From IMG/VR virus record IMGVR_UViG_3300038525_000015, positions 1 to 64,000 of that record: 64,000 bases of DNA. One strand, written 5' to 3'. This DNA comes from a virus. Its lineage: Duplodnaviria; Caudoviricetes. The position numbers and the translations under genes are program-made. Below the pieces are notes generated by a model. That model worked only from the letters and a program-made list of their open reading frames with translations. It searched no databases and was not told where the DNA came from. This document shows, one piece after another, positions 2,650-60,210 of this stretch. Position 1 is the stretch's first letter; every line of letters starts with the position of its first letter.

Positions 2650-3480
2650 TTACTGCTCCGCCCACTTCACAATTGAGCCACCGCCCGTTACCAGCAGCTT
2701 GTACTCGGCGCCCGGGTTTACCTGTGCATAAAGCTGGGTAGTGGCGTCGGTGTAGCTGACCATGTTGAAGCTCGCGCGCGCCATAATTACGCCATCAACC
2801 TCCAGGGACAGGGCTGACCCGTTTGTCGGCAGGACGGAAATGCTGATGTCTCGGGGGCGCGGGTCCGTATTTGTGTAGGTTACCCCGATGGCTCGGGATG
2901 CCGACACATCGACCCAGCCTTTGTCTACGCCCATCGCCCAGGCTATAACGCTAGCCAGCGTCGATGGTGCTACCGCAACATCGCTGAGCAGGCCTGCATC
3001 GATCTCCGCCTGCGTCCCGAAGCGCGCAACGCCCCGCTGGGTTTCAGTGGCACGCAGCGCGGACGACCCGACAACCCACCACTTACCTGCGCCGTCAGAT
3101 CGCAGACGCAGCCAGTCATCCCGGTACGGCAGCGACACGGATGCCTGCCCGGTCGGGCTGGCTACTGTGTCCAGCATGATCTTGTCGGTGGCATCTGCCG
3201 AAATGGTCGCGCTGTTTGCGCCCCCATCAACACGCCGCACGATCACGTCGCGGACGCCCAGTGCCGCATTGCTCTCGGGCAGAGTGACAGTCAGGCTGCC
3301 AGCAGTCGCATCGATCAGGACAAGCCCGAGCTGATTTGCAGTTAGTGCGGCGCTGGCGGTCAGCGTAGATACCGCGCCCACGATTCCGGCAATGAAATCG
3401 CGCTGATCCTCAAGCGCCTGTTTCATTTCCGCATTCGTGCGCTCGGCATTACTCAAATACCCGGGTGCAGGTAGTGCCAT
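2650..3480 (-). CDS. Tail fibre / receptor-binding protein
   Basis: ATETQRGVARFGTQAE fibre motif and WVDVSASRAIGVTYTN C-terminal domain. Confidence 0.7.
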   Translation of the reverse strand: MALPAPGYLSNAERTNAEMKQALEDQRDFIAGIVGAVSTLTASAALTANQLGLVLIDATAGSLTVTLPESNAALGVRDVIVRRVDGGANSATISADATDKIMLDTVASPTGQASVSLPYRDDWLRLRSDGAGKWWVVGSSALRATETQRGVARFGTQAEIDAGLLSDVAVAPSTLASVIAWAMGVDKGWVDVSASRAIGVTYTNTDPRPRDISISVLPTNGSALSLEVDGVIMARASFNMVSYTDATTQLYAQVNPGAEYKLLVTGGGSIVKWAEQ

Positions 3481-3488
3481 GTCGTCTC

Positions 3489-6254
3489 CTAGTAGCCCTG
3501 GATTCGGGCATCGATAATGGTTTCAACGGGATTTCCCAGCTCATCCAAGGTGCGAATTAGCGGGCCCAGCTCGGTGTTTTTGTCGACGATTTTTGCCGAA
3601 ACGGCGCCGGAGCCGTCGTCATGGATGGTCAGGCTGACCACGCGGATTCGGCGGTACGCCAGGGAGATCGGCAGGCGCGCCTCGCCGCCGACCACGCCGA
3701 ACGCCTCAATGACCTCGCTGACGTCCTCGACGTCGAGGATCATGCGGATGTCGCTAATGGTCGGCCTGGTGCCCGACTGCGACGACGGCACAATGACGCG
3801 GAACCGCATGCGTTGCCGGTTGCGCACGTCATCTGAGCCAGGCCACTCGGACCACTCCGCAGGGTCTGGCGCCCAGAAGTTCGCCCGGTCATCGCCCCAG
3901 GCCAGGTCGTCGTCTTCGCCCCAGATCTCGGAGCGGTCCGGGGCGATCCATTCGATTCGCAGGCCTGAAACGTTGGCGTCGAGGGCAATGGTGAGCTGCG
4001 CAGGCAGCGCCTCAGCCGGCGGCACGAAATCCCACTCATAGATCAGGCTCTCCCATGCAGGGCGCCAGAACAGGCCGTTGCCTGACGGAGCCCAGAACAC
4101 AGCATCGTTATCAGCCCAGAATCGCGTCGACTCGTTGGCGATCACGCCGGCCGGGGTGATCTCCCCGCCCGTGACGGCGCCCGTCCATCCCTCCGCCGCA
4201 TGACTGACCTCGTACACGATGTTCTGGACCGTAGGATCACCGATGCCGGTCGTGACGTAGGCCGACTCGCTCGCGTTTCCTGACCAGTCGATAGCGCGTA
4301 CCAGTATGGTGACGGTTCCGCTTGGCAGCTCATTAGCAGCCAGGCGAGTCGTAGTCAGGTAGCCCTCGTGCAGCTTGATCGCGTCGACCCAAGTTTTTCG
4401 CGTGCCTGGCTGATAGCGCGCCTCAAACCCCTTGAAGTCCAGCGGCGGGCTCGGGTAGCTCCAGGAGATCAGGCCGCTACGCAGCGTGACGCCGATGGGC
4501 CTGGGCGGCGGATTGTCCTGGCCGAGCAGGCTGTACGCGACCTCGACCCATTCGCTGGCAATTCCGATCCCGTTGCGCGATCGCACGCGGAACCGGTAGG
4601 CGCCAACCGTCAGGTCGTCGATCTCTGCCGTGGTTACCAGCAGGTCGCCGCCCGCCGGCCGCCAGCTCACGTCGGTCGCGGAGCGGAACTCCACCTCGAA
4701 CGACCGCGACTGCGGGCCGCCAGCCCCCCATGCCACGACGGCGCGGTTGCGGAACATCCCGTCCAGGCCGGTGTATAGCTGCTCTGTGACCGTGACGTTG
4801 ATCGGCGGCGCGACCGTGAATGGGTCCGGCAGGTTGACGGCCGGAGGCACATCTACGGCCAGCGCATCGGCCTCGGTCCAGGCCCATACGGCGGGCGCGT
4901 CCTCGCGCAGCACCACGCGCACGCCCTGGCGCAGGCTGATGGTGCAGTCCTCGACGCGGAACACCCGGCGATCCCAGCCAAGACTATCTACCGTCAGCGT
5001 TACTCGCGCGCCGGGCGCGATGGCCATCGCTCGGAATTTCAGCGTGCATTCCAGCATCAGGCCGTATCTGGTCTTTTCGAGATAGACCTTGGCCAGCCGG
5101 CGCGCCATCGTGCCGCTGTTGGTAAACGGGAAGTCGAACGACTGGTCAATTTCCTCCAGGTCCTCGGCGATGTACTCGCCCACCGCGAGCTGTACGAAAT
5201 CGACGGCGCTGTAGAGCTGAGACGGGTCAACAAACGTGCCCTTGGCGACGTTGAACCGGCCCGACTTCGGGGCGCGCGGGCTGAAATCCAGGCCGCCCAC
5301 CAGGTCGTCGGCGGTGAGGTCGATGCTCGGCTCTCGGTACTTGCCAGGGATCGCCCGCCACAGGCCGCCGCGGCGCTGGACGATCATGGCGCCGGCGTTC
5401 TGCAGGGTTTCCAGCACCTCCAGCGGCGGTTTGTTGAACGACTCGACGCCGTTGCAGGTGTAGCGCCGCTCGGTCCTGCCCGGGCCGGCCGGCACCAGCT
5501 CATCGGAGATATTGGCCGCCGCGATGAAGCTGGCCACATCGAGTGCAGTCCGCTGGATCTTCGCTCCGCGCGACCACGTCATGTAATCCAGAACGCACAG
5601 CGCGTGGTTGTCCGTGAAGCCGACCGTATCTGTGCGCGGGTCCCAGATGTCGTTCTTGCCGCGCACCACTGCCGAGATGTTCGGGATGCCGCTGTATTTG
5701 TCCTCCGCGTAGTCCAGGCGCACATACAGGTAGGTCTGGCCCAGCAGTTTGTCGCTGGCCGCCCAGCTCGGAATCTGCGCGACGACCTTCGGGTCTGCCG
5801 CGGTCTGGCCGCCCAGCTGCACGCTGAAATCAACCAGGCCGGCAAACGTTGACGTTACTGCATGGCCGCTGCCGGTCCATTGCAGGGCCAGCTCGTTGTC
5901 GAAATAGACGTCGCGGATCGAATCGCACGGGTGGGCGGCAAACACGACAATGATGTGCATGTAGCGGCTGTCACCGCCGCTCGCCTCCATCATCACGTAC
6001 TGGCCGCCGGTCTTGGCCGTGCCGTAGATGATCTGGCGGGGGTTGGCCGAGCCCCTGCTCGATACCTCGCGGTCCTTCATTGCGTCGAGACGGGCCTGGC
6101 GCGCGCGGCGCTCCGCCTCTTTTGCAGCCTCTTCGGCCTCCTTGGCCATGTCGTACATGTCCATGCCGAGGCCAAGAAAGCCGCCAGTAAGTGCGCCGCC
6201 AACACCGCCGAGCAGGAGGCCGCCGATTGCCCAATCTGTTGCGTTACTGCCCAT
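3489..6254 (-). CDS. Central tail tip / host-specificity protein (J-like, FN3 repeats)
   Basis: 921 aa; IIYGTAKTGG, RYTCNGV and YRFRVRSRNGIG motifs. Confidence 0.8.
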   Translation of the reverse strand: MGSNATDWAIGGLLLGGVGGALTGGFLGLGMDMYDMAKEAEEAAKEAERRARQARLDAMKDREVSSRGSANPRQIIYGTAKTGGQYVMMEASGGDSRYMHIIVVFAAHPCDSIRDVYFDNELALQWTGSGHAVTSTFAGLVDFSVQLGGQTAADPKVVAQIPSWAASDKLLGQTYLYVRLDYAEDKYSGIPNISAVVRGKNDIWDPRTDTVGFTDNHALCVLDYMTWSRGAKIQRTALDVASFIAAANISDELVPAGPGRTERRYTCNGVESFNKPPLEVLETLQNAGAMIVQRRGGLWRAIPGKYREPSIDLTADDLVGGLDFSPRAPKSGRFNVAKGTFVDPSQLYSAVDFVQLAVGEYIAEDLEEIDQSFDFPFTNSGTMARRLAKVYLEKTRYGLMLECTLKFRAMAIAPGARVTLTVDSLGWDRRVFRVEDCTISLRQGVRVVLREDAPAVWAWTEADALAVDVPPAVNLPDPFTVAPPINVTVTEQLYTGLDGMFRNRAVVAWGAGGPQSRSFEVEFRSATDVSWRPAGGDLLVTTAEIDDLTVGAYRFRVRSRNGIGIASEWVEVAYSLLGQDNPPPRPIGVTLRSGLISWSYPSPPLDFKGFEARYQPGTRKTWVDAIKLHEGYLTTTRLAANELPSGTVTILVRAIDWSGNASESAYVTTGIGDPTVQNIVYEVSHAAEGWTGAVTGGEITPAGVIANESTRFWADNDAVFWAPSGNGLFWRPAWESLIYEWDFVPPAEALPAQLTIALDANVSGLRIEWIAPDRSEIWGEDDDLAWGDDRANFWAPDPAEWSEWPGSDDVRNRQRMRFRVIVPSSQSGTRPTISDIRMILDVEDVSEVIEAFGVVGGEARLPISLAYRRIRVVSLTIHDDGSGAVSAKIVDKNTELGPLIRTLDELGNPVETIIDARIQGY

Positions 6255-40667: not shown

Positions 40668-41441
40668 ATGACCGACCTTACCGCCGCTGCCCCGCAGCAG
40701 GGGTTCAGCCTCACCCCGAAATCCCTCGACGAGGCCATGCGCTTCGCTGACATCCTGGCTAAGTCCAGCATCGTGCCCAAGGACTTCTCCGGCAACCCCG
40801 GCAACATCCTGGTGGCCATCCAGTGGGGTCTGGAGCTGGGCCTGCAGCCCATGCAGGCGATGCAGAACATCGCGGTCATCAACGGCCGCCCTGCTCTCTG
40901 GGGCGACGCGGTAATCGCCCTGGTTCGCAGCTCCCCGCTGTGCGAGTACATCTACGAGACCGACGACGGCGAGACGGCCACCTGCCGGGTGAAGCGCCGT
41001 GGCGAAGAAGAGCAGGTCCGCACATTCAGCATGGCCGACGCGAAGGTCGCTGGCCTGCTGGGCAAGGCTGGCCCCTGGACGCAGCACCCCCGGCGCATGC
41101 GCCAGATGCGCGCCCGGGCCTTCGCCCTGCGCGACGTGTTCCCGGACGTGCTGCGCGGGATGCCGGTAGCCGAGGAAGTGCAGGACATGGTTCCGGCGGA
41201 GCGCGACATGGGCTCGGTACCGCGCACCACGCCGCAGCAAAATCAGCTCCCCGCAGCTCTGCCGGCTTACCCCGACGAGAAGCTGGCCGAGATGCTGCCG
41301 GCCTGGCAGGCCGCTATCGCGGAAGAGAAAACCACCCCCGAGCGGATCATCAAGATGGTGCAGTCGAAGCACGTCCTGACCGATGACCAGCGCCAGAAGA
41401 TCATGGACCTACAGCCGGCCCTGGAGGGCTCCGCACAATGA
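40668..41441 (+). CDS. recT: RecT-family single-strand annealing protein
   Basis: ELGLQPMQAMQNIAVINGRP, WTQHPRRMRQMRARAFALRDVFPD. Confidence 0.85.
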   Translation: MTDLTAAAPQQGFSLTPKSLDEAMRFADILAKSSIVPKDFSGNPGNILVAIQWGLELGLQPMQAMQNIAVINGRPALWGDAVIALVRSSPLCEYIYETDDGETATCRVKRRGEEEQVRTFSMADAKVAGLLGKAGPWTQHPRRMRQMRARAFALRDVFPDVLRGMPVAEEVQDMVPAERDMGSVPRTTPQQNQLPAALPAYPDEKLAEMLPAWQAAIAEEKTTPERIIKMVQSKHVLTDDQRQKIMDLQPALEGSAQ

Positions 41442-43000
41442 GCATGACCATTCATGACGTAGCCCAAGGCACCCCGGAGTGGCACGCCCTGCGCGCCGAT
41501 CACTTCACCGCCTCCGAGGCGCCCGCGATGATGGGCGCCTCGAAGTACCAAAGCCGGACCGAGCTGCTGCAGGCGAAGAAGTCCGGCCTGGTGCCGGAGG
41601 TGACCCCAGCCCAGCAGGCGCTGTTCGATCGCGGCCATGAAACCGAGGCCCTGGCCCGCCCCATCGTCGAAGAGACGCTGGGCGAGGACCTGTATCCGGT
41701 GGTTGGCACCAGCGGCAACCTGCTGGCCAGCCTCGACGGCCTGACCATGCTGGGCGACGTCATCTTCGAGCACAAGTTGTGGAATGAAGAGCTGGCCGCC
41801 CAGGTGCGCGCCGGCGAGCTGGATCCGCACTACTACTGGCAGCTTGAGCAGCAGCTGCTGGTCAGCGGCGCCGAGCGGGTGATCTTCGTGGTATCGGACG
41901 GCACCCGGGAGCGCTTCGCTCACATGGAATACCGCCCGGTGCCTGGCCGCGCCGAGCAGCTGGTGGCCGGCTGGAAGCAGTTCGAGCAGGATCTGGCCGC
42001 ATTCGAAGTGCGGGCGCCGGCCGAGCCTGCCGCCGTTGGCCGCGCACCCGACGCACTGCCGGCCCTGCGCATCGAAGTCACCGGCATGGTGACTGCCAGC
42101 AACCTTCAGGCCTTCCGTGATCACGCCATGGCTGTGCTGGGCGGCATCAAGACCGAGCTCGCCACCGATCAGGACTTCGCGGACGCCGACAAGACGGTCA
42201 AGTGGTGCAAGGACGTCGAAGATCGCCTGGCAGCGGCCAAGAGCCATGCCCTCAGCCAGACCGCCAGCATCGACGAGCTGTTCCGCACGCTCAACGCAAT
42301 CGCCGACGAGACTCGGGCCAAACGCCTGGAGCTCGACAAGCTTGTGAAGGCCCGCAAGGAAACCATCCGCCTGGATATCAAGGCCAAGGCGGAAGCCGCG
42401 CTGGCCGCGCATATCACCGAGCTGGAAAAGGGCCTGATGCCGGTTCGCCTGCCCCGCACCACTGCCGACATTGCCGGCGCCATGAAGGGCAAGAAGACCG
42501 TCGCCAGCCTGAAGGATGCTGCTGATACCGAGCTGGCCAAGGCCAAGATCGAGGCCGGCGCCATCGCCGAGCGGATCGCTACCAACCTGCGCACTGTCCG
42601 CGAGAAGGCGCCCGATCACGGCTTCCTGTTCAACGACCTGCAGGAGCTGGCCCAGAAGGATCCCGAGGCGGTGGCTGCCATCGTGGCCCAGCGCCTGGCC
42701 GACCACCAGCAGGCCGAGCAGCGCCGCCAAGATGTCGAGCGCGAGCGCATCCGGGCAGAGGAGCAGGCGAAGCTGGCCAAGCCGGCGCCCGCTCCGGTGA
42801 TGGACGACGAGCCGTTCGTCTCCCAGCTTTCGGAGCAGATCGGTCTGGCGCCGCGCCGTTCGGCTCCGGCGGAAACCATCACCATCACCCGCGCCGAGTA
42901 CGACCAGCTGCTGGCAGATCAGCGCCTGCTGCGCGCCCTGCAGGCTGCCGGCGTGGATAACTGGGATGGCTACAGCGAGGCGCTGCAGGAGGTCGCCTGA
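41438..43000 (+). CDS. YqaJ-like viral recombination exonuclease with coiled-coil tail
   Basis: GTPEWHALR..FTASEAP, ASLDG, FEHK, YYWQLEQQL. Confidence 0.88.
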   Translation: MSMTIHDVAQGTPEWHALRADHFTASEAPAMMGASKYQSRTELLQAKKSGLVPEVTPAQQALFDRGHETEALARPIVEETLGEDLYPVVGTSGNLLASLDGLTMLGDVIFEHKLWNEELAAQVRAGELDPHYYWQLEQQLLVSGAERVIFVVSDGTRERFAHMEYRPVPGRAEQLVAGWKQFEQDLAAFEVRAPAEPAAVGRAPDALPALRIEVTGMVTASNLQAFRDHAMAVLGGIKTELATDQDFADADKTVKWCKDVEDRLAAAKSHALSQTASIDELFRTLNAIADETRAKRLELDKLVKARKETIRLDIKAKAEAALAAHITELEKGLMPVRLPRTTADIAGAMKGKKTVASLKDAADTELAKAKIEAGAIAERIATNLRTVREKAPDHGFLFNDLQELAQKDPEAVAAIVAQRLADHQQAEQRRQDVERERIRAEEQAKLAKPAPAPVMDDEPFVSQLSEQIGLAPRRSAPAETITITRAEYDQLLADQRLLRALQAAGVDNWDGYSEALQEVA

Positions 43001-48410: not shown

Positions 48411-49445
48411 ATGGGAAGACGACCGACAAAGCCGGGCGCGATCGCTCGGCTCAGGGAGCGCCGCAAGCCCAGCGGCAAGGTGTATTACTACTACGACGCT
48501 GGCGGGAAGCCTCGCCGGGAAATCCCGCTGGGCAGCGACTACGGCATGGCCATCGTCAAATACGCCGAGCTCGAGCGCGACCGGACGGCGGACGGCATTC
48601 GCCAGGCGGTGATCACCTTCGCCTACGTCGCGGACCAGTACCTGATCGAGATCGTGCCCACCAAGGCGCCGGGCACCCAGGACAAGAACAAGCAAGAGCT
48701 GGCCCGTCTCAAGGAGTTTTTTTGCGACCCGCCTGCGCCGCTGGAGGCCATCCAGCCGCAGCACGTCAAGCAGTACCTGCGTTGGCGGAAAAGCGCGCCG
48801 GTATCCGCGAACCGCGAGAAGGCGCTGTTGTCGGCCATCTGGAATTACGCCCGCGAAGCTGGATATACCGCGCTGGCCAACCCCTGCGCCGGGGTCAAAG
48901 GCAACAAGGAGAAAGGCCGCGTCAACGTATACATCGAGGACAGCATGTTCCAGGCAGTCTACCAGGTGGGATGCGCCGGCTTGCGGGATGCCATGGACCT
49001 GGCCTACCTGACCGGCCAGCGCGTTGGCGACACCCTGCGCATGGATGAGCGCGACATCCGAGACGGACACATCGCGATCACCCAGGCCAAGACCAAGGCG
49101 AAACGGCGAATCGAGATTGCCGGGGAACTGGCCGCGCTGGTCGAGAGGATCAAGGCGCGGAAGGCGGGTCACAAGGTCCGCTCAACGCGGCTGGTTGTGA
49201 CAGAGGACGGCGCACCCATGACGGCGGCGATGCTGCGGGGCAGGTTCGACAAGGCCAGGGAGGCTGCCGGAATCCCGAAAGCTGAATTCCAGTTCCGCGA
49301 CCTACGGGCCAAGGCCGGCACCGACAAGGCGGAATCGAGCGGCGACATCATGCAGGCTCGCGATCAGCTCGGGCACACCAGCGTGGTGATGACCGAGCAG
49401 TACATCCGCGAGCGTCGAGGGAAAAAGGTCTCGCCAACGCGGTAA
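48411..49445 (+). CDS. int: Tyrosine integrase
   Basis: TGQRVGD, FRDLRAKA, LGHTSVVMTEQY catalytic motifs; next to the att repeat. Confidence 0.95.
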   Translation: MGRRPTKPGAIARLRERRKPSGKVYYYYDAGGKPRREIPLGSDYGMAIVKYAELERDRTADGIRQAVITFAYVADQYLIEIVPTKAPGTQDKNKQELARLKEFFCDPPAPLEAIQPQHVKQYLRWRKSAPVSANREKALLSAIWNYAREAGYTALANPCAGVKGNKEKGRVNVYIEDSMFQAVYQVGCAGLRDAMDLAYLTGQRVGDTLRMDERDIRDGHIAITQAKTKAKRRIEIAGELAALVERIKARKAGHKVRSTRLVVTEDGAPMTAAMLRGRFDKAREAAGIPKAEFQFRDLRAKAGTDKAESSGDIMQARDQLGHTSVVMTEQYIRERRGKKVSPTR

Positions 49446-51207: not shown

Positions 51208-54200
51208 TCACTCCCTCGCGCGAGCCTCCTCGATCCGCTTCCCTGCCCTCTCGGTCAGCCGGCTCTTGATGGCCTGCAACCGATCCAGCTCCCGCCGCTT
51301 GCGCTCGCCGTCCCAGTCGCTGCGGCGCACCATATCCATGCGGGCATTGATGCCGCTGAGTTGCTTCTGCACCTCAGCCAGCGGTTTACGCATTGCCAGC
51401 ACCTGCCGCTTCTCCTGAACCAACTCCCTCGCTTCATCCTTACGCCCCAGCTCCTGGAGACGCTTCGCGTCGGCATACACCCGCCCGGATTCTTTCAGGC
51501 CTTCATAGAACAGCGTGCTGTAGCGGTCATACGGCGCCGGCGCGCCCAGGTCGCGGTAGAACCGCCGGATCGGCTGGTACTCGTGCCAATGCTTCGCCGG
51601 CTCGCTCTCGCCGCCCGCTGCGCGCCAGACCGTATCAGTGATGCCGGCGCCCCAAGCGCCAACCTGACCGAGGTAGCCCCTGATCAGGTGATCGGCCTGC
51701 AGCGACGAGAGTGCGAATTCTTCGCCCAGCACTGCGGTGGCCGAGGAAATCGCTTTCGCCGGCGCAGTGCTGCTCGCTCGATCGCGCAGGGTTGGGCTCA
51801 CTTTCTCCATCCCGGCGCTCTCGATAGGCCGGCCGGTGAAAGCATCCCTGTTCGAGTACACATCCAGCGCTGGCTGGAACATCTGCGGCACCGGACTGAA
51901 GCTGAACGTTTGGGTGAGCATCGCCCACAGCCGCTCGCGAAACAGCTTGCCGCTGGCCTTGTCGTCGACTGCCTGTTCAGCCAGACGCTCCACCAGCGTG
52001 GAAATGGCACCCACCTCGAACGGCTTGGGCAGGAAGAAGGCGTTATCCCCGACGCGGAAGAACCAGAAGCTGTCCTTCTGCCAGTCCTCGAGCTTGCGGT
52101 ACTCCTCGTCGTCATGGTTCGCCAGGAAAAGCGCCAAGCTGGCCAGCGCCAGCGCACCGGTCACCGCGGCGAACCGGGCGGCCGCCACCTTGTCGCTGTT
52201 GGTGCCCTTGCCGAAGGCAACCTTGACCGCCGGCTTGAAGCCCGAGCGATACAGTTTGTCGAGGCCCTGCAGGCGAGCATTTAGAAATGGCACAACGCGA
52301 ATCAGGAAGCGCACCGCCGGCCAGGCGCCTTCCTGGCTGAAGTCCATCAGATCGCGCGCCTCGTAGGCGGCGCGCAGCGCACCCTTGTCCTTGTTCTGCA
52401 GGAAAGCCGCCGCCCGATTGGCGTTTTCGGCGGTGTTAGCCGCCTCGTTGTAGGCGTCCCAGCCGGCCACCAGCAGCTTCGGCACCAGGGCGGGAGCGTC
52501 CAGCAGCTTCGCGCCGCGCAGGGAGCGCTTGAGCCCGGCCTTCACCTCCTCGGGATCCGCACCGTAGATATGCCCGAAGCTGAATGCACCACCACTGGCC
52601 AGCATCTGCGCCCTGGTCTTCTGATCGCGGAAGGACTTCAGGCCCTGAAACATGTTCGCTGGCACGTTCTTGCTCACCGGCGTGGTGGCGGCGGCCTGCA
52701 TCGAGTCGCGCAGGAAGTTGGCGATGATGAACTGCGGCGTGATGGTGGTCATGTTGGTGAACACCCGCTTGAACTTGGCCATGGTGCGCACGGCGAAGTT
52801 GTTGAGCCCCGGGTCGGCCAGCGAGCTCAACGCCTCGAACACCAGGGCATCGTCCACCTCGTACCAGACCTTATCGCCCTTCTCCAGAACGAAGGTGCTG
52901 GTCTTGGGATCGCGTGCTGCCTCTGGGACCTTCCGCGCAATCTGCAGGCGCTCAGCGTTGGCGATGGTTTGCGCCGCGGCCTGGTTCTTCAGGCTGGCCG
53001 TCAGCAGGTGGTGGAAGTTCATCAGGGTGTTTTCCAGCAGGTCATTCAGATTCTGCTTCCCGCCCTTGAGCTTCTTGTACGCCTCCTGCCGACTCAGCCC
53101 CTTGGACGAAACCGGGCCCTTCGCCTTGGCCTCTTCATCCATGACCCGATAGAACGGGACGTAGAACTCGTCCCGCCACATGGCACGGTTCTCGGAGCTG
53201 ATAATGCCGGTCTGCTCAGCAATGGCCAGCACGTCGTCGCGGTACTGCTGGAACTCCTTGAAGACCTCATCGTAAAGCGATGCACGGGTGCGGCCGTCTT
53301 CAGTGACACCCCTGTTGATCCCTTTCAGCGCCTCGATGTCCTGGGCGGTGAACAGGTTTTCCCTGCCCTCTGCCGCGAGCTTGGCCGCCCGATTGCCGGC
53401 CACCCAGCCGAAGAAGCGCTCGATTTCCTTCGCATCCCCAAGCCGGCCCAGCACTTCACCCAGACCCATACTGCCGTCTTCGCGCATGCCGATCACTTTC
53501 TGCTGCGGATCGAGGACGATGCGGCCGTTGTGCATCATGGCGTTGAGCGCACCGGCGGCCGCCGGCGCCATGCGGGCCAGTACCCAGGCGCTGCTGGTGA
53601 TCGAAGTGTCGAGGAAGTCGAGGCCGTGAGCCTTCTCGTCGAGTTCCTTCAAGGCGGCGTAGCGATCGACCAGGCCCTGGCGGATCTTGGTCATAGCGCG
53701 GTCGGCGCGCTCGCGGAACCAGAGCGTTGCGCGCTGGCGAGCAGTCGGGGGAGCGATCTTGCCCAGCGCATCGCGCTCGGCCTGGCTGAGATCGGCGAAA
53801 GCTTCGGAAACGTGGGGGCGCGTCGACCGCAGCGAGTAGCGGGTGTCTTCGGAGGGGTCTACAGGTGCTTCAGTTCCGGATCGATCGCCAGTTGCTGCTT
53901 GGCCCACTCGGAAGAGGCCTTCATCTCGCGCCGCAGAGATTCGATCTCGGATTTCGTCAGGCGATAGTTGCCCTTTGTCGAACGTGAGGAGGGTTCGAGC
54001 TTCGGACTGGGTGAGCCCTTCGAAGCCATAACCGAAGGTTTCACGCCACCAGGGTTCGATATCGCTGTACTTGCCACGGACTTGCGCCAAGGTGTCGGGA
54101 TCAATCGCAAGTTTCCGTGAGTAGTTCTTGCCGGTCAAGGCAAGCGCTGCCAGCACCTGGCCGCCGTTGTCCTCGATGTGCGTCTTCAACTGCGCCAGAG

Positions 54201-57200
54201 TTCCACCCTGGGTCAGGGTGTCGTCGAGGAGCAGGTACTCAGCGGCGACCACGCCACCATCGAAGGTCGGCTGATTGGCAATGCGCTCCAGAGCATTTGA
54301 CTGGGTCCGACCAACCTTCTGCGCCTGCATCACATTGGTGTCGGTCTCCAAGCCCAGGCGCTGCGCCAGCACCTCGGCAGCCATCAGCGGAATCCGATTG
54401 TCCCCCGCACCCTCGCGCGCCAGCACCGGCACGATGCGCGGCAAGCTGCCCTCCGGAATCAGCGCTCGCACCCGCTCGATGAACTCCGGCGTTACAGCAT
54501 CGCGGGCGACGCGCAGCGCGGCCGCGTCGTCGCCGGCCTTGGCTGCGGCGTAGTCGGGGTGGTTGTTCAGGAAGCTCAGGGGGTGCGCCAGCACCGTATC
54601 GGGGAAATCCGCCGCCCAGCCTCGACGGGAGTAGAGCTGGTCGGAACCAGACAGGTTCGCGCGCTGCGCACGCAGCCAGTCCCGCGACTGCTCGATCAGG
54701 GCCAGCACGTCGGTGTAGGTCCAGTTCACCTGGGGGAACAGCTTGCGCAGCAACTCGCGGATCTTCGACGCCACACGCTGAAGCACGGTCGGTCGGTCGC
54801 CCGACTCGGCCAAGTGGGCAATGATCTCCTCGGCAATCAGCAGGCGCTGCTCCGCTGCGCTCTTGCCTTGGAGCACGGCGGCGTAGTGCTCGCGGATCTG
54901 CGCCACCCGCTGCCGGCCGGTGGTGCGGGCCATCTCGCTGGAATAGATGCGTTCCAGCGTGCCGTCGAGCTGATCACCCAGCAGGCCGCGAATGCCCTGG
55001 TGGCCAACCATCTCGTGCACCGCGGTGCGGATGGCTTCTTCCAGATCCTGCTGGTTGTCGGCGACCAGGTACTGCGCATCCGGCCGAAACACACCGCGGA
55101 CATCATGGGACCGCACACCATCACGCTCAGCGCGGATTCGCACCGACAGAGGCAAGTCGCCAAAGGCCTGCACCACTTGGATGCTTGCTAGCTCAGGATG
55201 CTTATCGATCTCCGTTTGGATTTCCACCGCCGACACCTGGCCACGGCCGTCTAGGCGGTACATTTGGACGCCACTATCCGTCTCGCGCGTTTCGATGATG
55301 CCGAAGAGCTCATCAAACGCAGCACGCACTGAAGGGAGCTCTGCAGCTGTTAGGTAGGGGTAACGATCCGGGTCGCTGTATGCCGTCTCCGATACGATAT
55401 TCGCCAGGTAATCGCTGCTAATACCAGCGTCCTGCAGCTTGGCTATGACATGGCTTTCGAAGGCGCGAGCCGACATTTCCAGCGCCGTTGACCAGTAATC
55501 CTTGCTGCGTGTTGCGTCTAATTGCTCGGAACGCTTCTGCAAGTCTGTCGCCCTGAGCGCACTCATCAGACGACTGAAGGCTTCGATGAGCTCGGGGCGT
55601 ACACCCTCACCGCGCTTGTAAGGCCGCTCAGTGAGATAAGCATCCGGCTGACTTCTGGCCCGACTGAGGTAGTTGTCGAAGGCATGCCACCACTCATGCG
55701 CCAGCGAGCCAGCACCGTTCCCCTTGGTCAGGTTAATGACAGTCTCGCCCGACTCGTAATGCGCTTTTGCCGGGTCAGGCCCACCTCTACCACGCGCACC
55801 GAACGCTAAAGCGAGCTCTCCATTGAGCGACAGAGCCTTGGCCGGGATGTTCAAGATGCCGGCCAAATCACTCAGCGCGTCGAATGCTTCGTTGAGCTCT
55901 TGCTGCCGACGGTTGTTTTCAACGTAGTTGCCAAACTGCACACCACGAAAACCGAAGGTCTCGCTGAACAGCTCGGGGGTAACATCCTGGCCATTCCGGT
56001 AGTCGACCCCAACCCGAGGCGCGTTGCCTTCACCTCGGTGCGCGGGCACCTCTTTTAGCGCGTCGTACTGCCTTTCTAGCGAACTCTGATTTTCGCCCAG
56101 ATACTTGCGTGCCTCTGCCAAGCTGTCGAACGATCGAAGCCGCGCAACGCGCTTGCCATTTTTTTTCCCAATGAAATAGCCGCGCTCGCCACGCTGAGAG
56201 AACACATCGAAGCGGATGGCGTTGTCGGCTTTTTTCTTCACAGACTCGAGCTTGGCATGTACCTCCGCAAAGGCGTCCAAGGCTTCCTGCTTGGTGTTAC
56301 CGGAGGCCAATTCTTGCGGCCAATTACTCAGCGCCGTAGCTTTTGCATCCTTGCTGGCAATCCATTTATTGACGTTTTTCTCGCCTCGATACATCGAGAA
56401 ATAGCGCTCGGCGAACGTAATGCCCTTGAGCGAATGCGCATGTCCAAAGCGCTGATACAACTCCACCCGGCCAGCCAGACCGCGCAACGCGGGGTGGTCG
56501 TCGTAGAGGCTTGAGCGAACCTCTTCGGTGAGTTCGCCGTGATCCAAAATCCGGCGCGTCGCATTGCGCAAAAGATCAACCTGGTCAGCCCACCGACTCA
56601 GCTTGTATGGATTGCTGGGTTTGGTGGGCACCTCATCTCGGGCAGCATGTGCAAAAGCAACCGCCCAACGGTCACCACCCTGATCCAGAAGTGCCTGATA
56701 GTCCGGTTCAGGCCAAGACTTAGACAGCGGTACCGCTTTCACGTCCGCTTGCATCGCCACGTCGAGCTGCTGCGTATAGGACGAAAACTTGCGCGCGCCC
56801 TCGATTCGCTCTCCGAAGTCGTCGATCTTCTTTGTTGGCTTGGGTGTAGCGGCTGGTTTTTCGGCGACTACCTGCTTGGCCGGCAGAGTGTGTTCCACTT
56901 GGTCGCGCTTGGCGGGAGCGTTGCGCTCCGCGCCCGATGCCAGTTTTTGCTCAGCTGAAGAGCCGGAGGAGGTGTCGCTTACGCGGTCGGTTGCTGCAGG
57001 GCCTGCTTCGCTTGCCGACGAGCCAGGCGCTCCTGCGTCGCTTGCTCGATGCGCGCCTGCAGCTCGTTCTGGCGCCTTTCCAGCTCCACTGGATCGCTGG
57101 TCCCGAAGTGCTCGATCGCTCGTTGGAGCCTGGCTTCCGCTGACATGCTGGGTACCTTTTTTGCTCTGATCCATCGCCCTATCGGCGGCGTTCATGACAT

Positions 57201-60200
57201 CCGCAGAAGTGAGGCCTGCTTCGATCGGGGAAACCCCCAGATGCAGCCCCACGCCACGTTTGGACTCGTCGTCAGGATGCTTCGGGTGGACGATCTTGTC
57301 CAGCCCTTCCCGGCGCGTGTAGGCCTTGGCGGCCGCCTGGCCACGCTCCAGGGCCGCCTCGACTGCCGCTCGCTCGCCGCCAATCACCAGCACGCCGAAC
57401 TCGTCGCCGCCGGTGCGGAAGCCTTCGACATGGCCGACCGCGCCCAGCTCCTTGCGCACGATGTCCGCCAGCGCCCGGTAGTGCTTGTTGGCGTCCCGAG
57501 CCACGTTGTTGAAATGCGCGTTCAGTCCACCCAGGTTAGCGATGTCGGCGCTCACCCAGTACGCCTCGCCGTCGGTGGCGGCCACGTACTCGATGGCTCG
57601 GCCAATGGCGCGCTCAGTGTCAGTGCTGCCGTCTTCCGCTTCGCGCCGGCCCTCGAACAGTCCGGTGGTGGCATCGATGGGTGCGGAGAAGCGCGACTTG
57701 CTGGCCAGGCGCTCGGCCACGTCCGGGGCCACGCCGTCGGCGATGTACTCGTCGATAACGGCCTGGCGGTAGGAGTCCGCATAGGGCGTATAGCCAGCAG
57801 CCGGCCCCTGCTCGGCGCGCCCTGCCTGGGCGAGATCCTGGGCCGGCTTGGTCAGGTCTCCCTTGAGCCAGCGCTTGAACTGCTCGACCGGCATGGCCGT
57901 GACCTCGCCCACCTTCCAGTCCGGATCGAAGTTGGAACGGTAGGCCTCCACCGCCGCGGCCTGGTCGGGATAGCCCAGCATCACCTTGTGCTCATCGAAG
58001 CTGCCATCCTGCTGGTGGAGCTGGTCAACGATGAACACCTGGTCGCTGTCTTCCTGCGGCCCTAGGTACACGTCGACCTGCTCTTGGTCGGCGCCAACGG
58101 TGCGCTTGATGTAGCCGTAGTGATCGCTCATGGTGTGACGCCACTCGGTACCATCCGGGCGCTTGCCGCTGCGCTCGGAGCCGCGCGGATTCTCAACAGC
58201 GATATCCAGGCCGGCGACGCGCACATGCCCCTTGCGGTAGTTGCCGGTCTCAATCTGCGCCGGCGTGGGCGCCGGCAGGTCGTTGTTCGGGGAGGTGGCC
58301 GCCTGATCTGCCTGTTGGTCGATCGGACGTGCCGGACGCAACGGCTGCGGTTCCTGCTGCTTGGGCACTGCAACGGCCCAGCCATCACCGTGGCGCACGA
58401 TCTGCGGCTGCTCGCCAGCCTTCGCCGCCTCGCGATACAGGAGGCTCGCGCGCGCATCGCCGCGCCCCTGGAACGGCTTGCCGTTCTTGCGCAGCCGAAT
58501 TTCCAGATCCGGCGCGCCGCTGGCGTCAGCAGTTGGAGCGTGCTGGTCCATCCCGCGCCCGCCCGGCAGCGGCCGTTCGGGATTCGGAGCCACGAACGGC
58601 CCGGTCGGCCCCCGCTGAGCATTGCCCTGGCTATCCACCACGATGCTATCCGGGGCGGGCAGTGCCTGGCGCTCCGGTGCGGCGTCGACCGTGGCAGGCT
58701 CCGCGGCTGCGCGCCCAGGTGCCGCCGGCCGACTGCCATACTGGAACTCGCCAGCCAACGGCGCCGGTTCGCCTCGCGGGGTCGGCTGATCCATACCCGG
58801 CCCACCGGGCATGCGCTCCGGATCGTTCTGCGGATTGACCCACTGGCGTGCCTGCAGATCCGGCCGCTGCTCGCCGTCCACGTTGCGCACCGGCCCGGTG
58901 TCTTGCACGTTGCCTTGGCTGTCGGCATAGAAGACCTTCTCGGGCGCCGGCAGTGCCTGGTGCTCAGGTGCCGGCAAAGCGCCGGGCTCGGGGGTGTTCT
59001 CGAAGGTGGCTTCGGGGGTCGCGAGATCCTGGGCTGCAGCGCTAGCAGGCCTGACGCGCGGCGTGGCCACCGCACCCAGCCCCCCACCCATAACAGCGCC
59101 AGTGGCGAGGCCGCCAAGCCCTGCGTTCAGCACGCCAGCGCCAAGCTTTCGATTCGGGTCGGCGTCCTGCATGGCGTAGTTCTCTGCCACCTGCTGCCCA
59201 ATCGACTGCGGCAGCTCTTCCAGCAGGCCTTCGCCAACCGCGCCCTTGGCGATACGCCCGCCGATACCCGCTGTCACCCTGCCAGTCAGCAGGTTGGCCA
59301 GCGCACGGTCGCCCATGCCGCCGAAAACACCCGTGGCCGCGCCAGCTATGAGCAGGCCTTGGGTGGCAGAGTCCTCAGCCAGTTGCGCCCGCGCTTCCTC
59401 CGGCTTAAGCCCCTCTTCCAGCAGCGTCTGAAACGCCTCGGACTGCTGCAGTTGCTCCAGCGGCATGGCGGCGATCTGGTCGCGCACCTGGCGCGCCGTG
59501 TCCGCTCCGCCCAGCAAGCCCTCGGAAACGCCGCCGGCCACGGTCGCCATGCGTGCGGCGGCCTTCGCCGCCACTGCTTTATCCCCCGTCTTGGCCAGCG
59601 CGCGAGCATAGGCGCCCTTGGCCAGCCGGCCCGCCGCGCCCATGGTGATGGCCATCTCCGGCAGCGACTGGATGATGCCGCTGGCGTAGGCGCGCGGATC
59701 AGTCCAGGCCGAGCCGAGCGAACCGGTTTCCTCATCCCACCACAACTTCTGCTGCGCGCCACGCATCTCGGGGGTCAGGTTCTGCTGGTACTTCTGCTCG
59801 TTTTCCCGCAGCAGCGTTTCGGAGTCCTTGCCCGACAGGAAGCGGTCGGCGGCATCACCCGCCGCCAGCAACCCTTCGCCCACCACCGGGATGCGCCCCA
59901 CCAGCTCGCGCACGTTCTGCGCCGCGCGGTTGACGCCTGCTGCCAGGAGGTTGCCTGTGTCGGTGAGCAGATTGCCGCTTTCCGGGGATTCCGCATCAGC
60001 CCCAAGGGTCGACCGACCAAGCGTGCTCTGCGTGTCCTGGTCGAACAGCTCGCGGGCACGCGGCTCCATGCCTGCTGGAACCCGAGGCATAACCACTTCT
60101 TGGAAGTAGAGTTCGCGAGCACGCTCTTGGCGTTCGGGCGCCAGCGCGCGGAATTGCTCGCTGGCAGCCACCTCCGCCCAGCGGCGGGGTTGGCGGGTTT

Positions 60201-60210
60201 CGTTCTGCAT
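51208..60210 (-). CDS. 3000-aa large polyvalent virion (ejection-type) protein
   Basis: Domains N to C: Gly-rich hydrophobic region; ALPAP repeats; pyrophosphatase-like (about 58275-57865); GGDEF (about 57690-57150); LPD5-like; LPD1-like with HEWWH; second zincin HEMVGH; PRTase (LLDDTLTQGGT); LPD38-like C-terminus. Confidence 0.88.
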   Translation of the reverse strand: MQNETRQPRRWAEVAASEQFRALAPERQERARELYFQEVVMPRVPAGMEPRARELFDQDTQSTLGRSTLGADAESPESGNLLTDTGNLLAAGVNRAAQNVRELVGRIPVVGEGLLAAGDAADRFLSGKDSETLLRENEQKYQQNLTPEMRGAQQKLWWDEETGSLGSAWTDPRAYASGIIQSLPEMAITMGAAGRLAKGAYARALAKTGDKAVAAKAAARMATVAGGVSEGLLGGADTARQVRDQIAAMPLEQLQQSEAFQTLLEEGLKPEEARAQLAEDSATQGLLIAGAATGVFGGMGDRALANLLTGRVTAGIGGRIAKGAVGEGLLEELPQSIGQQVAENYAMQDADPNRKLGAGVLNAGLGGLATGAVMGGGLGAVATPRVRPASAAAQDLATPEATFENTPEPGALPAPEHQALPAPEKVFYADSQGNVQDTGPVRNVDGEQRPDLQARQWVNPQNDPERMPGGPGMDQPTPRGEPAPLAGEFQYGSRPAAPGRAAAEPATVDAAPERQALPAPDSIVVDSQGNAQRGPTGPFVAPNPERPLPGGRGMDQHAPTADASGAPDLEIRLRKNGKPFQGRGDARASLLYREAAKAGEQPQIVRHGDGWAVAVPKQQEPQPLRPARPIDQQADQAATSPNNDLPAPTPAQIETGNYRKGHVRVAGLDIAVENPRGSERSGKRPDGTEWRHTMSDHYGYIKRTVGADQEQVDVYLGPQEDSDQVFIVDQLHQQDGSFDEHKVMLGYPDQAAAVEAYRSNFDPDWKVGEVTAMPVEQFKRWLKGDLTKPAQDLAQAGRAEQGPAAGYTPYADSYRQAVIDEYIADGVAPDVAERLASKSRFSAPIDATTGLFEGRREAEDGSTDTERAIGRAIEYVAATDGEAYWVSADIANLGGLNAHFNNVARDANKHYRALADIVRKELGAVGHVEGFRTGGDEFGVLVIGGERAAVEAALERGQAAAKAYTRREGLDKIVHPKHPDDESKRGVGLHLGVSPIEAGLTSADVMNAADRAMDQSKKGTQHVSGSQAPTSDRALRDQRSSGAGKAPERAAGAHRASDAGAPGSSASEAGPAATDRVSDTSSGSSAEQKLASGAERNAPAKRDQVEHTLPAKQVVAEKPAATPKPTKKIDDFGERIEGARKFSSYTQQLDVAMQADVKAVPLSKSWPEPDYQALLDQGGDRWAVAFAHAARDEVPTKPSNPYKLSRWADQVDLLRNATRRILDHGELTEEVRSSLYDDHPALRGLAGRVELYQRFGHAHSLKGITFAERYFSMYRGEKNVNKWIASKDAKATALSNWPQELASGNTKQEALDAFAEVHAKLESVKKKADNAIRFDVFSQRGERGYFIGKKNGKRVARLRSFDSLAEARKYLGENQSSLERQYDALKEVPAHRGEGNAPRVGVDYRNGQDVTPELFSETFGFRGVQFGNYVENNRRQQELNEAFDALSDLAGILNIPAKALSLNGELALAFGARGRGGPDPAKAHYESGETVINLTKGNGAGSLAHEWWHAFDNYLSRARSQPDAYLTERPYKRGEGVRPELIEAFSRLMSALRATDLQKRSEQLDATRSKDYWSTALEMSARAFESHVIAKLQDAGISSDYLANIVSETAYSDPDRYPYLTAAELPSVRAAFDELFGIIETRETDSGVQMYRLDGRGQVSAVEIQTEIDKHPELASIQVVQAFGDLPLSVRIRAERDGVRSHDVRGVFRPDAQYLVADNQQDLEEAIRTAVHEMVGHQGIRGLLGDQLDGTLERIYSSEMARTTGRQRVAQIREHYAAVLQGKSAAEQRLLIAEEIIAHLAESGDRPTVLQRVASKIRELLRKLFPQVNWTYTDVLALIEQSRDWLRAQRANLSGSDQLYSRRGWAADFPDTVLAHPLSFLNNHPDYAAAKAGDDAAALRVARDAVTPEFIERVRALIPEGSLPRIVPVLAREGAGDNRIPLMAAEVLAQRLGLETDTNVMQAQKVGRTQSNALERIANQPTFDGGVVAAEYLLLDDTLTQGGTLAQLKTHIEDNGGQVLAALALTGKNYSRKLAIDPDTLAQVRGKYSDIEPWWRETFGYGFEGLTQSEARTLLTFDKGQLSPDEIRDRISAARDEGLFRVGQAATGDRSGTEAPVDPSEDTRYSLRSTRPHVSEAFADLSQAERDALGKIAPPTARQRATLWFRERADRAMTKIRQGLVDRYAALKELDEKAHGLDFLDTSITSSAWVLARMAPAAAGALNAMMHNGRIVLDPQQKVIGMREDGSMGLGEVLGRLGDAKEIERFFGWVAGNRAAKLAAEGRENLFTAQDIEALKGINRGVTEDGRTRASLYDEVFKEFQQYRDDVLAIAEQTGIISSENRAMWRDEFYVPFYRVMDEEAKAKGPVSSKGLSRQEAYKKLKGGKQNLNDLLENTLMNFHHLLTASLKNQAAAQTIANAERLQIARKVPEAARDPKTSTFVLEKGDKVWYEVDDALVFEALSSLADPGLNNFAVRTMAKFKRVFTNMTTITPQFIIANFLRDSMQAAATTPVSKNVPANMFQGLKSFRDQKTRAQMLASGGAFSFGHIYGADPEEVKAGLKRSLRGAKLLDAPALVPKLLVAGWDAYNEAANTAENANRAAAFLQNKDKGALRAAYEARDLMDFSQEGAWPAVRFLIRVVPFLNARLQGLDKLYRSGFKPAVKVAFGKGTNSDKVAAARFAAVTGALALASLALFLANHDDEEYRKLEDWQKDSFWFFRVGDNAFFLPKPFEVGAISTLVERLAEQAVDDKASGKLFRERLWAMLTQTFSFSPVPQMFQPALDVYSNRDAFTGRPIESAGMEKVSPTLRDRASSTAPAKAISSATAVLGEEFALSSLQADHLIRGYLGQVGAWGAGITDTVWRAAGGESEPAKHWHEYQPIRRFYRDLGAPAPYDRYSTLFYEGLKESGRVYADAKRLQELGRKDEARELVQEKRQVLAMRKPLAEVQKQLSGINARMDMVRRSDWDGERKRRELDRLQAIKSRLTERAGKRIEEARARE
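53859..54029 (-). CDS. Nested +1-frame ORF over the end of the PRTase domain (56 aa)
   Basis: MASKG...NYRLTKSEIESLRREMKASSEWAKQQLAIDPELKHL; host-like codons in the +1 frame; start and RBS uncertain. Confidence 0.5.
   Translation of the reverse strand: MASKGSPSPKLEPSSRSTKGNYRLTKSEIESLRREMKASSEWAKQQLAIDPELKHL
56979..57146 (-). CDS. Nested +1-frame ORF directly after the GGDEF domain (55 aa, not in the ORF track)
   Basis: AAAGGT SD 7 nt before ATG; MSAEARLQRAIEHFGTSDPVELERRQNELQARIEQATQERLARRQAKQALQQPTA. Confidence 0.6.
   Translation of the reverse strand: MSAEARLQRAIEHFGTSDPVELERRQNELQARIEQATQERLARRQAKQALQQPTA

Follow-up and report, generated by a model that had tools for sequence, protein, structure and literature searches.

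Does the long reading frame of a giant phage protein encode that protein alone, or do its apparent linkers hold further genes in a second frame? The question is raised by a 64,000-nucleotide stretch of DNA (positions 1 to 64,000 of the IMG/VR record IMGVR_UViG_3300038525_000015, Duplodnaviria; Caudoviricetes; hereafter the window), which is part of a virus record of 81 kb from a terrestrial metagenome assembly. A single open reading frame (ORF) at 51208-60210 encodes 3000 amino acids (aa) and includes a GGDEF-like nucleotidyl cyclase module and a phosphoribosyltransferase (PRTase) module. A first-pass annotation of the window had pointed to two short ORFs in the +1 frame, one directly behind the GGDEF-like module (ORF A) and one over the end of the PRTase module (ORF B), and proposed that each encodes an inhibitor of the enzyme before it. 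Both ORFs were found where they had been reported and, judged by comparison with homologues, they are very probably real protein-coding genes that overlap the polyvalent gene in the +1 frame. The features on which this rests are the following:

51208-60210, minus strand: polyvalent-protein gene, main frame, 3000 aa, with the Pfam domains InPase, LPD5, LPD1 and LPD38 and PHROG matches to DarB-like antirestriction and large virion-protein families
57151-57663, minus strand: GGDEF-like nucleotidyl cyclase module, residues ~850-1020, with an RTGGDEF motif
57155-57159, minus strand: Shine-Dalgarno-like AAAGG, 8 nucleotides upstream of the ORF A ATG
56979-57146, minus strand: putative nested gene A, +1 frame, 55 aa, MSAEARLQRAIEHFGTSDPVELERRQ..., over a linker rich in S, G, A, R and P (main-frame residues 1022-1077)
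53914-54606, minus strand: PRTase module, residues 1869-2099, assigned by profile match, AlphaFold2 (AF2) model, Foldseek and phrog_22413
53859-54029, minus strand: putative nested gene B, +1 frame, 56 aa, ATG at 54029, over the last PRTase helix and the linker (main-frame residues 2061-2117)
53862-53966, minus strand: conserved core of gene B, YRLTKSEIESLRREMKASSEWAKQQLAIDPELKHL, a single long predicted helix

Codon phase along the polyvalent gene

The polyvalent gene contains 11 ATG-initiated +1 ORFs of at least 55 aa, against 7.4 ± 1.8 expected from synonymous shuffles, and shadow ORFs of this kind are common in GC-rich genes. By the same shuffles, the open frame of ORF A is what chance would readily give (P = 0.67), and that of ORF B is of only marginal significance (P = 0.04). 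The background of shadow ORFs and the value for ORF A favour a non-coding explanation, in which the nested frames would be chance ORFs of a GC-rich genome or would mark a nucleotide-level element, for instance an RNA structure or a hotspot of recombination where modules meet. The significance of both ORFs rests on comparative data, not on openness.

Both ORFs stood out in a codon-phase scan, in which the main-frame GC content at third codon positions (GC3) was compared with the GC content at the +1 wobble position in 30-codon windows along the whole ORF. The two largest phase inversions of the gene lie at residues 1032-1061, within ORF A (main-frame GC3 0.37, +1 wobble GC 0.87), and at residues 2088-2117, within ORF B (0.33 and 0.80, respectively), against a gene-wide main-frame GC3 of 0.77. 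The earlier observation that main-frame codons are atypical over both ORFs and typical in the +1 frame is thus confirmed and is specific, with only A and B at the top inversions. The accompanying statement that no such ORF follows the pyrophosphatase-like or zincin domains was incorrect, as ATG-initiated +1 ORFs do follow InPase (residues 810-886, 76 aa) and LPD1 (residues 1697-1791, 94 aa). Main-frame GC3 over these two is normal (0.86 and 0.81, respectively), so the remaining +1 ORFs are considered ordinary GC-rich shadow ORFs. The third-strongest dip, at 56623-56712 (main-frame residues 1166-1195; GC at first codon positions 0.87, GC3 0.43), held no ORF that looked credible, whichever the frame; the main-frame product there resembles a conserved domain, and the dip may be due to local composition or recent acquisition.

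The overlapping gene at the PRTase end

A search of IMG/VR with the PRTase module recovered 25 loci (52-83% identity), in all of which neither the long frame nor, over ~85-96 codons, the +1 frame is interrupted. Across these loci the +1 peptide (...LT.SEIESL..E...S..WAK.QLA.DPELKHL) is more conserved than the main-frame peptide, and between residues 2087 and 2112 the most variable codon position shifts from the third position of the main frame to the first, which is the wobble position of the +1 frame. In a multiple alignment of 3,939 columns, built from residues 1400-3000 of the window gene and 6.7-kb loci, the observed-to-expected ratio of synonymous variability has a median of 1.0 and falls to its global minimum, 0.09, at residues 2095-2119.

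A further 76 PRTase loci (40-85% identity) came from a profile search of GTDB genomes and belong to Gamma-, Beta- and Alphaproteobacteria, Verrucomicrobiota and Planctomycetes. The hidden Markov model (HMM) of the peptide matched the +1 frame at the PRTase end in 68 of the 76; of seven loci that were re-examined, one is cut by the contig end and six have an open, helix-like +1 ORF. In total, about 100 PRTase homologues from several phyla, with 40-85% identity and a GC content of 0.35-0.71, have an open +1 frame. Openness is not confined to GC-rich DNA: in the 18 loci with a GC content of 0.35-0.46, the +1 frame is open for 64-424 codons, compared with a mean of 16-18 for random sequence. In the INPHARED phage collection, tblastn with ORF B as query found nothing.

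The three frames were compared over 87 unique 26-codon segments from the PRTase homologues. The +1 frame contains no stop codon in any segment, with a mean identity of 42% and variation peaking at the +1 wobble, as opposed to an identity of 33.5% in the main frame, which is interrupted by stops in 16 segments, all from solo or terminal enzymes; the +2 frame has stops in 86 of the 87. Over the core of gene B, the ratio of nonsynonymous to synonymous variation (pN/pS) is 0.54 in the +1 frame, against a main-frame value of 1.4. A control segment, taken at the catalytic DDTLT motif, shows the pattern of ordinary coding sequence.

The AF2 model of the PRTase module (predicted local distance difference test, pLDDT, 83.7; model residues 232-262 below 50) places the end of the fold at about residue 2099 and predicts residues 2100-2130 to be disordered. 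Since the fold ends there, the core of gene B would cover the last PRTase helix, as true dual coding, followed by linker. In Moraxella phage Mcat8, where the PRTase is the C-terminus of a MuF protein whose gene adjoins the portal gene, the +1 frame over the end of the MuF-PRTase gene (its last 14 codons) reads MALTPSEIYSLRQ....

The overlapping gene after the GGDEF module

The GGDEF region is absent from the five closest PRTase relatives, and no relative was recovered from IMG/VR with the GGDEF region and linker as query. A protein-database search with the GGDEF region found twelve polyvalent homologues, and the DNA of eight was compared with the window gene (nine sequences, 36-82% identity). 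The nine genes differ in architecture and include ART-PolyVal/helicase, NUDIX, HopBF1-kinase and vRNAP proteins.

A +1 ORF of 47-57 aa, starting MS.E.R..R, is found in all nine. Its ATG is likewise kept throughout, within main-frame His-Val or Asn/Asp-Val codons of the form xAT GTn (CAT GTC in the window), and is preceded in every case by a Shine-Dalgarno-like site at a distance of 8-13 nucleotides. In the homologues these sites read GAGG, GAGGTG, AGGAG or GAAGGG and use the rare main-frame Arg codon CGA. Main-frame GC3 over the ORF is 0.33-0.44 in all nine, compared with 0.63-0.90 gene-wide, and in 13 of 15 pairwise comparisons pN/pS is lower in the +1 frame (0.33-0.86) than in the main frame (0.96-1.45); the exceptions are L111-L112, with values of ~1.0 in both frames, and the nearly identical pair L109-L110. 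Two expectations raised by the first-pass annotation, namely that the +1 frames stay open in homologues and are under purifying selection, are therefore supported for both ORFs.

Translation starts

The further expectation that ATG and Shine-Dalgarno sites are kept holds for ORF A and not for ORF B, where the start varies. Among 94 loci, an ATG lies exactly at the motif in 46 and 14-43 codons upstream of it in 35, while 13 offer only GTG or TTG. In the window, the ATG at 54029 arises from a rare main-frame TAT codon, with GTG at 54077 and TTG at 54110 as alternative starts.

The variable start of ORF B bears on a different reading, in which programmed +1 (or -2) frameshifting leads into the +1 segments as alternative C-termini, giving truncated isoforms that end after the GGDEF-like or PRTase module. 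Several PRTase loci, including the closest relatives of the window, have no ATG in the +1 ORF, and the +1 frame in the window is open for ~35 codons upstream of an ATG that has no Shine-Dalgarno site. For ORF A, however, the start codon and ribosome-binding site are conserved, and a +1 stop sits 7-16 codons upstream of the ATG, which makes frameshifting an unlikely route to this product. The many B loci with ATG exactly at the motif, and free-standing genes with their own starts, also argue against it, and no conserved slippery or hungry-codon site was seen in the nucleotide alignment, inspected by eye. Frameshifting is accordingly considered very unlikely.

Families of the small proteins

A profile built from eleven +1 peptides was searched against 1.84 billion representative proteins with hmmsearch. 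It yielded 134 matches at E ≤ 1e-3, nearly all of them proteins of 39-130 aa; the matches to large proteins (WD40-like, low-complexity) were judged false. The family consensus is (V)YRLTPSEIESLR.E...S..WAKEQL.IDPELKHL, with one Leu invariant and Ser-Glu and another Leu nearly invariant, and 25 of 122 members contain two tandem motifs. For the B peptide of the window, AF2 predicts 25 disordered N-terminal residues, one long helix (residues 26-49, pLDDT 91-98) and a short turn at the C-terminus. A search of the ESM Atlas returned only unnamed clusters, all below 0.9.

Several members of the B family stand apart from the PRTase-overlapping arrangement. A free-standing gene (L028:3995-4174) lies beside Arc and antirepressor (ANT) genes in a temperate-phage early region, and two adjacent free-standing genes (L031:117-290 and ~280-561) occur on a short contig. 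In L124 (4058-4135; L125 is identical), a giant ORF contains a nested LTPSEIESLR-type peptide right behind LPD3, with no PRTase. In two Methylococcaceae metagenome-assembled genomes, an ORF overlapping the 3' end of a solo PRTase gene begins with an MLT..EIELLQKDKR helix and continues into HEPN (L065:2138-2941; Pfam E 2e-8) or SH3_3 (L086:2138-3304); the former arrangement could be a PRTase-HEPN two-gene system. One protein, P0067 (260 aa), was considered as an in-frame fusion of PRTase and peptide and rejected, as it switches to the +1 shadow after residue 178. It ends in an LTPSEVDSLR helix; a frameshifted gene or an error in sequencing may account for it, or it may hint at frameshift products that occur naturally.

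For ORF A, a single-sequence k-mer search gave no match, while an eight-sequence profile retrieved about 20 called small proteins of the family, including a MSQENRDERLGLTGLTPEQR... subfamily and a free-standing annotated gene in Actinocatenispora. The predicted products of A and B each belong to a conserved, uncharacterised family of small, probably helical proteins with free-standing members.

Taken with these families, the comparative data leave the non-coding explanation exceedingly improbable: variation shows three-base periodicity centred on the +1 wobble, pN/pS is below 1 only in the +1 frame, that frame remains open at low GC content, the ORF A start and its Shine-Dalgarno site are conserved, and a protein HMM recovers the peptides as families from a very large protein set. 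Two metatranscriptomes hold 5-8% of the sampled sequence words, as contigs that show neither starts nor translation.

Cassette architecture and linkage to the enzyme modules

The PRTase occurs in three layouts, which are solo genes of ~220-245 codons with their stop codon inside the small ORF, C-terminal modules of longer proteins (Mcat8, L122, L131-L133), and internal modules of giant ORFs, with a long frame that carries on through the small gene. Where the enzyme is solo or fused to MuF, which preserves the ancestral arrangement for B, the small gene begins ~15-30 codons before the enzyme stop and extends beyond it. In a reverse search of IMG/VR with the B peptide, 16 of the 18 loci found have a PRTase in front of it. 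Relative to the end of the enzyme, the position of the peptide is fixed to the codon at ~100 PRTase and nine GGDEF loci of unrelated architectures, solo enzymes included. Comparison of homologous sequences thus ties the putative gene A to the 3' boundary of the GGDEF-like module and gene B to that of the PRTase.

Because the codon phase over the overlap is typical of the genome in the small gene, and the read-through is an atypical low-complexity segment, the small gene appears to be the older and more constrained reading, and the giant ORF to have swallowed whole two-gene cassettes. The solo PRTase loci, with the small gene overlapping the enzyme 3' end, also fit the earlier proposal of a self-contained enzyme-plus-partner unit that can be shuffled without breaking the long frame. 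In L122, a duplicated PRTase C-terminal fragment with its nested peptide (2687-2960) lies ~1.1 kb upstream of the complete unit (3391-4114), which fits movement of PRTase and peptide as one cassette.

The GC-phase scan was extended to nine giant genes (z of at least 3). Only A- or B-type ORFs were detected in the window (plus the one dip without an ORF), L108-L110, L113 and L114, and additional peaks appeared in L111 (residues 1048-1077) and L115 (residues 1437-1466). A third nested +1 ORF of 98 aa (MTPKQ...) was identified in L111 (4588-4881) and L112 (4447-4740), the two copies being 88% identical. It is preceded by GGAGG or GAGG and lies over a linker rich in G, A, E and R, upstream of an Eco57I-like N6-methylase module. 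Pfam, NCBIfam and PHROGs offered no credible family for peptides A and B or for the product of this third ORF.

The third, unrelated nested gene, the free-standing members of both families and the B peptide behind LPD3 could be read as signs of autonomous effectors or regulators, for example with anti-defence or lysogeny-related functions, that are merely lodged in linker DNA and have no tie to the enzymes. Their codon-exact position at the enzyme ends, across so many loci and including solo enzyme genes, is nevertheless not what would be expected of a hitch-hiker, and autonomy is regarded as distinctly unlikely.

Possible role of the small proteins

The explanation considered best overall is that the giant ORF has swallowed two-gene cassettes whose small proteins act as antidotes, and it is given about an even chance of being right. 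The antidote role taken by itself, with the small proteins acting in an immunity- or antitoxin-like manner on their enzyme modules, is put at even or slightly less; its precedents, by analogy, are the MuF toxins with their immunity ORFs and the PRTase toxin of ShosTA with its antitoxin. In polyvalent genes, the enzyme stop is absent and the long frame continues across the small gene; beyond the last PRTase helix, this gives a disordered linker of low complexity and atypical codons. The small proteins would be made from internal ribosome-binding sites during translation of the late mRNA and, in the producing cell, would bind the cognate enzyme module or counter its product. On entry into a new cell, the delivered enzyme would lack its partner and become active. 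Free-standing copies of the families might act as orphan immunity genes.

As in toxin-immunity layouts, the small ORF is located at or overlaps the coding end of the enzyme and moves with it. The strict co-occurrence with the upstream domain that had been anticipated was found in part: enzyme and peptide travel together in solo, MuF-fused and polyvalent contexts, but LPD3 neighbours, free-standing copies and HEPN/SH3 fusions break the rule, and the partner and enzyme families are not strictly cognate. Orphan immunity genes could explain part of this.

Several observations weigh against an antidote function. The B peptide is not exclusive to the PRTase, being found after LPD3 (L124/L125), as free-standing genes (L028/L031) and in the fusions, and the A-family gene of Actinocatenispora has no GGDEF neighbour. 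In L113 and L114, which carry two tandem GGDEF-like domains, a pattern search revealed an A-type ORF after the first only. The start codon of gene B is not conserved across the 94 loci, and that of the window has no Shine-Dalgarno site. Moreover, universal co-occurrence would suit an obligate cofactor equally well.

This last point leads to the alternative that the small proteins are obligate partners of the enzymes in some other way, serving for example as cofactor or activating subunit, as chaperone in folding or packaging, as docking tag or as substrate. In one variant, a protein bearing the LTxSEIxxL helix would be modified by the PRTase, much as HEPN toxins are by MNT enzymes. The near-universal co-occurrence with the PRTase and the invariant and nearly invariant residues of the B peptide agree with this, and the L065 helix, being the N-terminus of a HEPN protein whose gene adjoins a solo PRTase, hints at a docking or substrate role. 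Copies without a nearby PRTase (L028) are, however, hard to reconcile with a mere subunit, and the conserved Ser-x-x-Glu is perhaps just a helix cap. Overall, obligate partnership is judged unlikely, although it retains appreciable weight.

Extending the antidote reading beyond the window, polyvalent proteins in general may be chains of swallowed two-gene cassettes, in which each dangerous nucleotide-handling enzyme comes with an out-of-frame antidote in an apparent linker, is silent during virion assembly and is armed on injection; the units would recombine with the long frame intact, and the nested genes (A, B and the third) would form a general, unannotated layer. This generalisation is offered only tentatively, as a reading that could well be wrong.

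Relation to known systems

Phage lambda offers a known example of a small gene within a larger one: Rz1 is embedded in the +1 frame of Rz, and the two spanin products work together. The layout of the window is alike in that a small gene lies wholly within the larger phage gene. It differs in that the proteins and their function are unrelated, and in that two embedded genes (three in relatives) are present, each at a module boundary.

In temperate phages, a small immunity ORF comes after the MuF toxin gene (Jamet et al., 2017; PMC5576092). The likeness lies in an enzymatic domain that ends a virion-associated protein with a small ORF directly behind it, a layout shared by Mcat8. In the window, by contrast, the module is internal, the small gene is wholly within the long ORF in another frame, and its overlap with the last helix of the enzyme covers 15-35 codons, not a few bases. 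PRTase or GGDEF modules and the A and B peptides are not mentioned in that work.

Polyvalent proteins, as described by Iyer, Burroughs, Anand, de Souza and Aravind (2017; PMC5512222), include PRTases of Proteobacteria and Verrucomicrobia that are fused to MuF or solo, and the window gene is alike with its InPase, GGDEF, PRTase and LPD domains. The term 'overlapping' is absent from that paper, which describes no nested genes and treats linkers as linkers. ShosTA comprises a PRTase-fold toxin that requires a neutralising partner (PMC11961720; PMC12961424), and ShosT is reported to combine the activities of a PRTase and a pyrophosphatase (PMC11961720). The fold matches of the window PRTase include ShosT (8zvc), whose similarity is limited to the fold (template modelling score ~0.37). 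Its antitoxin ShosA differs from the small proteins described here, as it is a much larger DprA-like protein encoded by a separate, non-overlapping gene.

Full-text searches of the literature for polyvalent proteins together with overlapping genes or phage overprinting found no such case. Overlapping phage genes and toxin-partner cassettes are already known kinds of arrangement, and what is new here is the two small-protein families (three in relatives). Their absence from annotation is attributed to gene finders, which forbid genes inside genes. The A and B peptides are candidate inhibitors of a GGDEF-like cyclase and an enigmatic PRTase, respectively. If they are antidotes, they would explain how a phage builds a virion protein carrying enzymes harmful to the producing cell, and also how such enzyme modules are exchanged. 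The linkers of giant mosaic proteins merit screening in a second frame, as the simple GC-phase scan recovered every case described here, at the cost of just two windows lacking a credible gene, as well as the third nested gene of L111 and L112.

The polyvalent protein and its surroundings

The product of 51208-60210 is a typical representative of the polyvalent proteins defined by Iyer et al. (2017), since unrelated enzymatic and LPD domains are joined in one 3000-aa polypeptide of a virus record with an integrase. Besides the GGDEF-like and PRTase modules, it contains:

57862-58260, minus strand: InPase (inorganic pyrophosphatase) module, residues 651-783, Pfam E 1.6e-54
55957-56367, minus strand: LPD5 module, residues 1282-1418, Pfam
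55288-55521, minus strand: LPD1 (zincin-like) module, residues 1564-1641, Pfam
51574-52110, minus strand: LPD38 module, residues 2701-2879, Pfam

The GGDEF-like module gave a weak match to PF00990 (E 3.4e-4; 20.8 bits, under the 23.8-bit cut-off), and PF00990 is listed in the precomputed Pfam annotation of some of its homologues. For the PRTase module, a profile match to the phosphoribosyl pyrophosphate (PRPP) loops of APRT was obtained (E 1e-4), the LLLDDTLTQGGT motif (PRPP-binding loop, acidic DD) is invariant among homologues, and Foldseek matched its model to APRT, ComF and ShosT with a probability of 1.00. Virion-type traits comprise the PHROG matches to DarB-like and virion-protein families and a MuF_C domain in the homologue P0140. 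A whole-gene megablast search returned as its sole result a 6% match, to the DarB-like gene of Serratia phage Parlo.

The InPase and PRTase modules (57862-58260 and 53914-54606) occur together in one protein, which may be compared with the coupling of both activities in ShosT. A tyrosine integrase gene at 48411-49445 adjoins the 3' end of the polyvalent gene and points to a temperate phage. Further along, in a RecE-like exonuclease ORF at 41438-43000, the C-terminal 40 aa match RecBCD-inhibitor (Gam-like) PHROGs.

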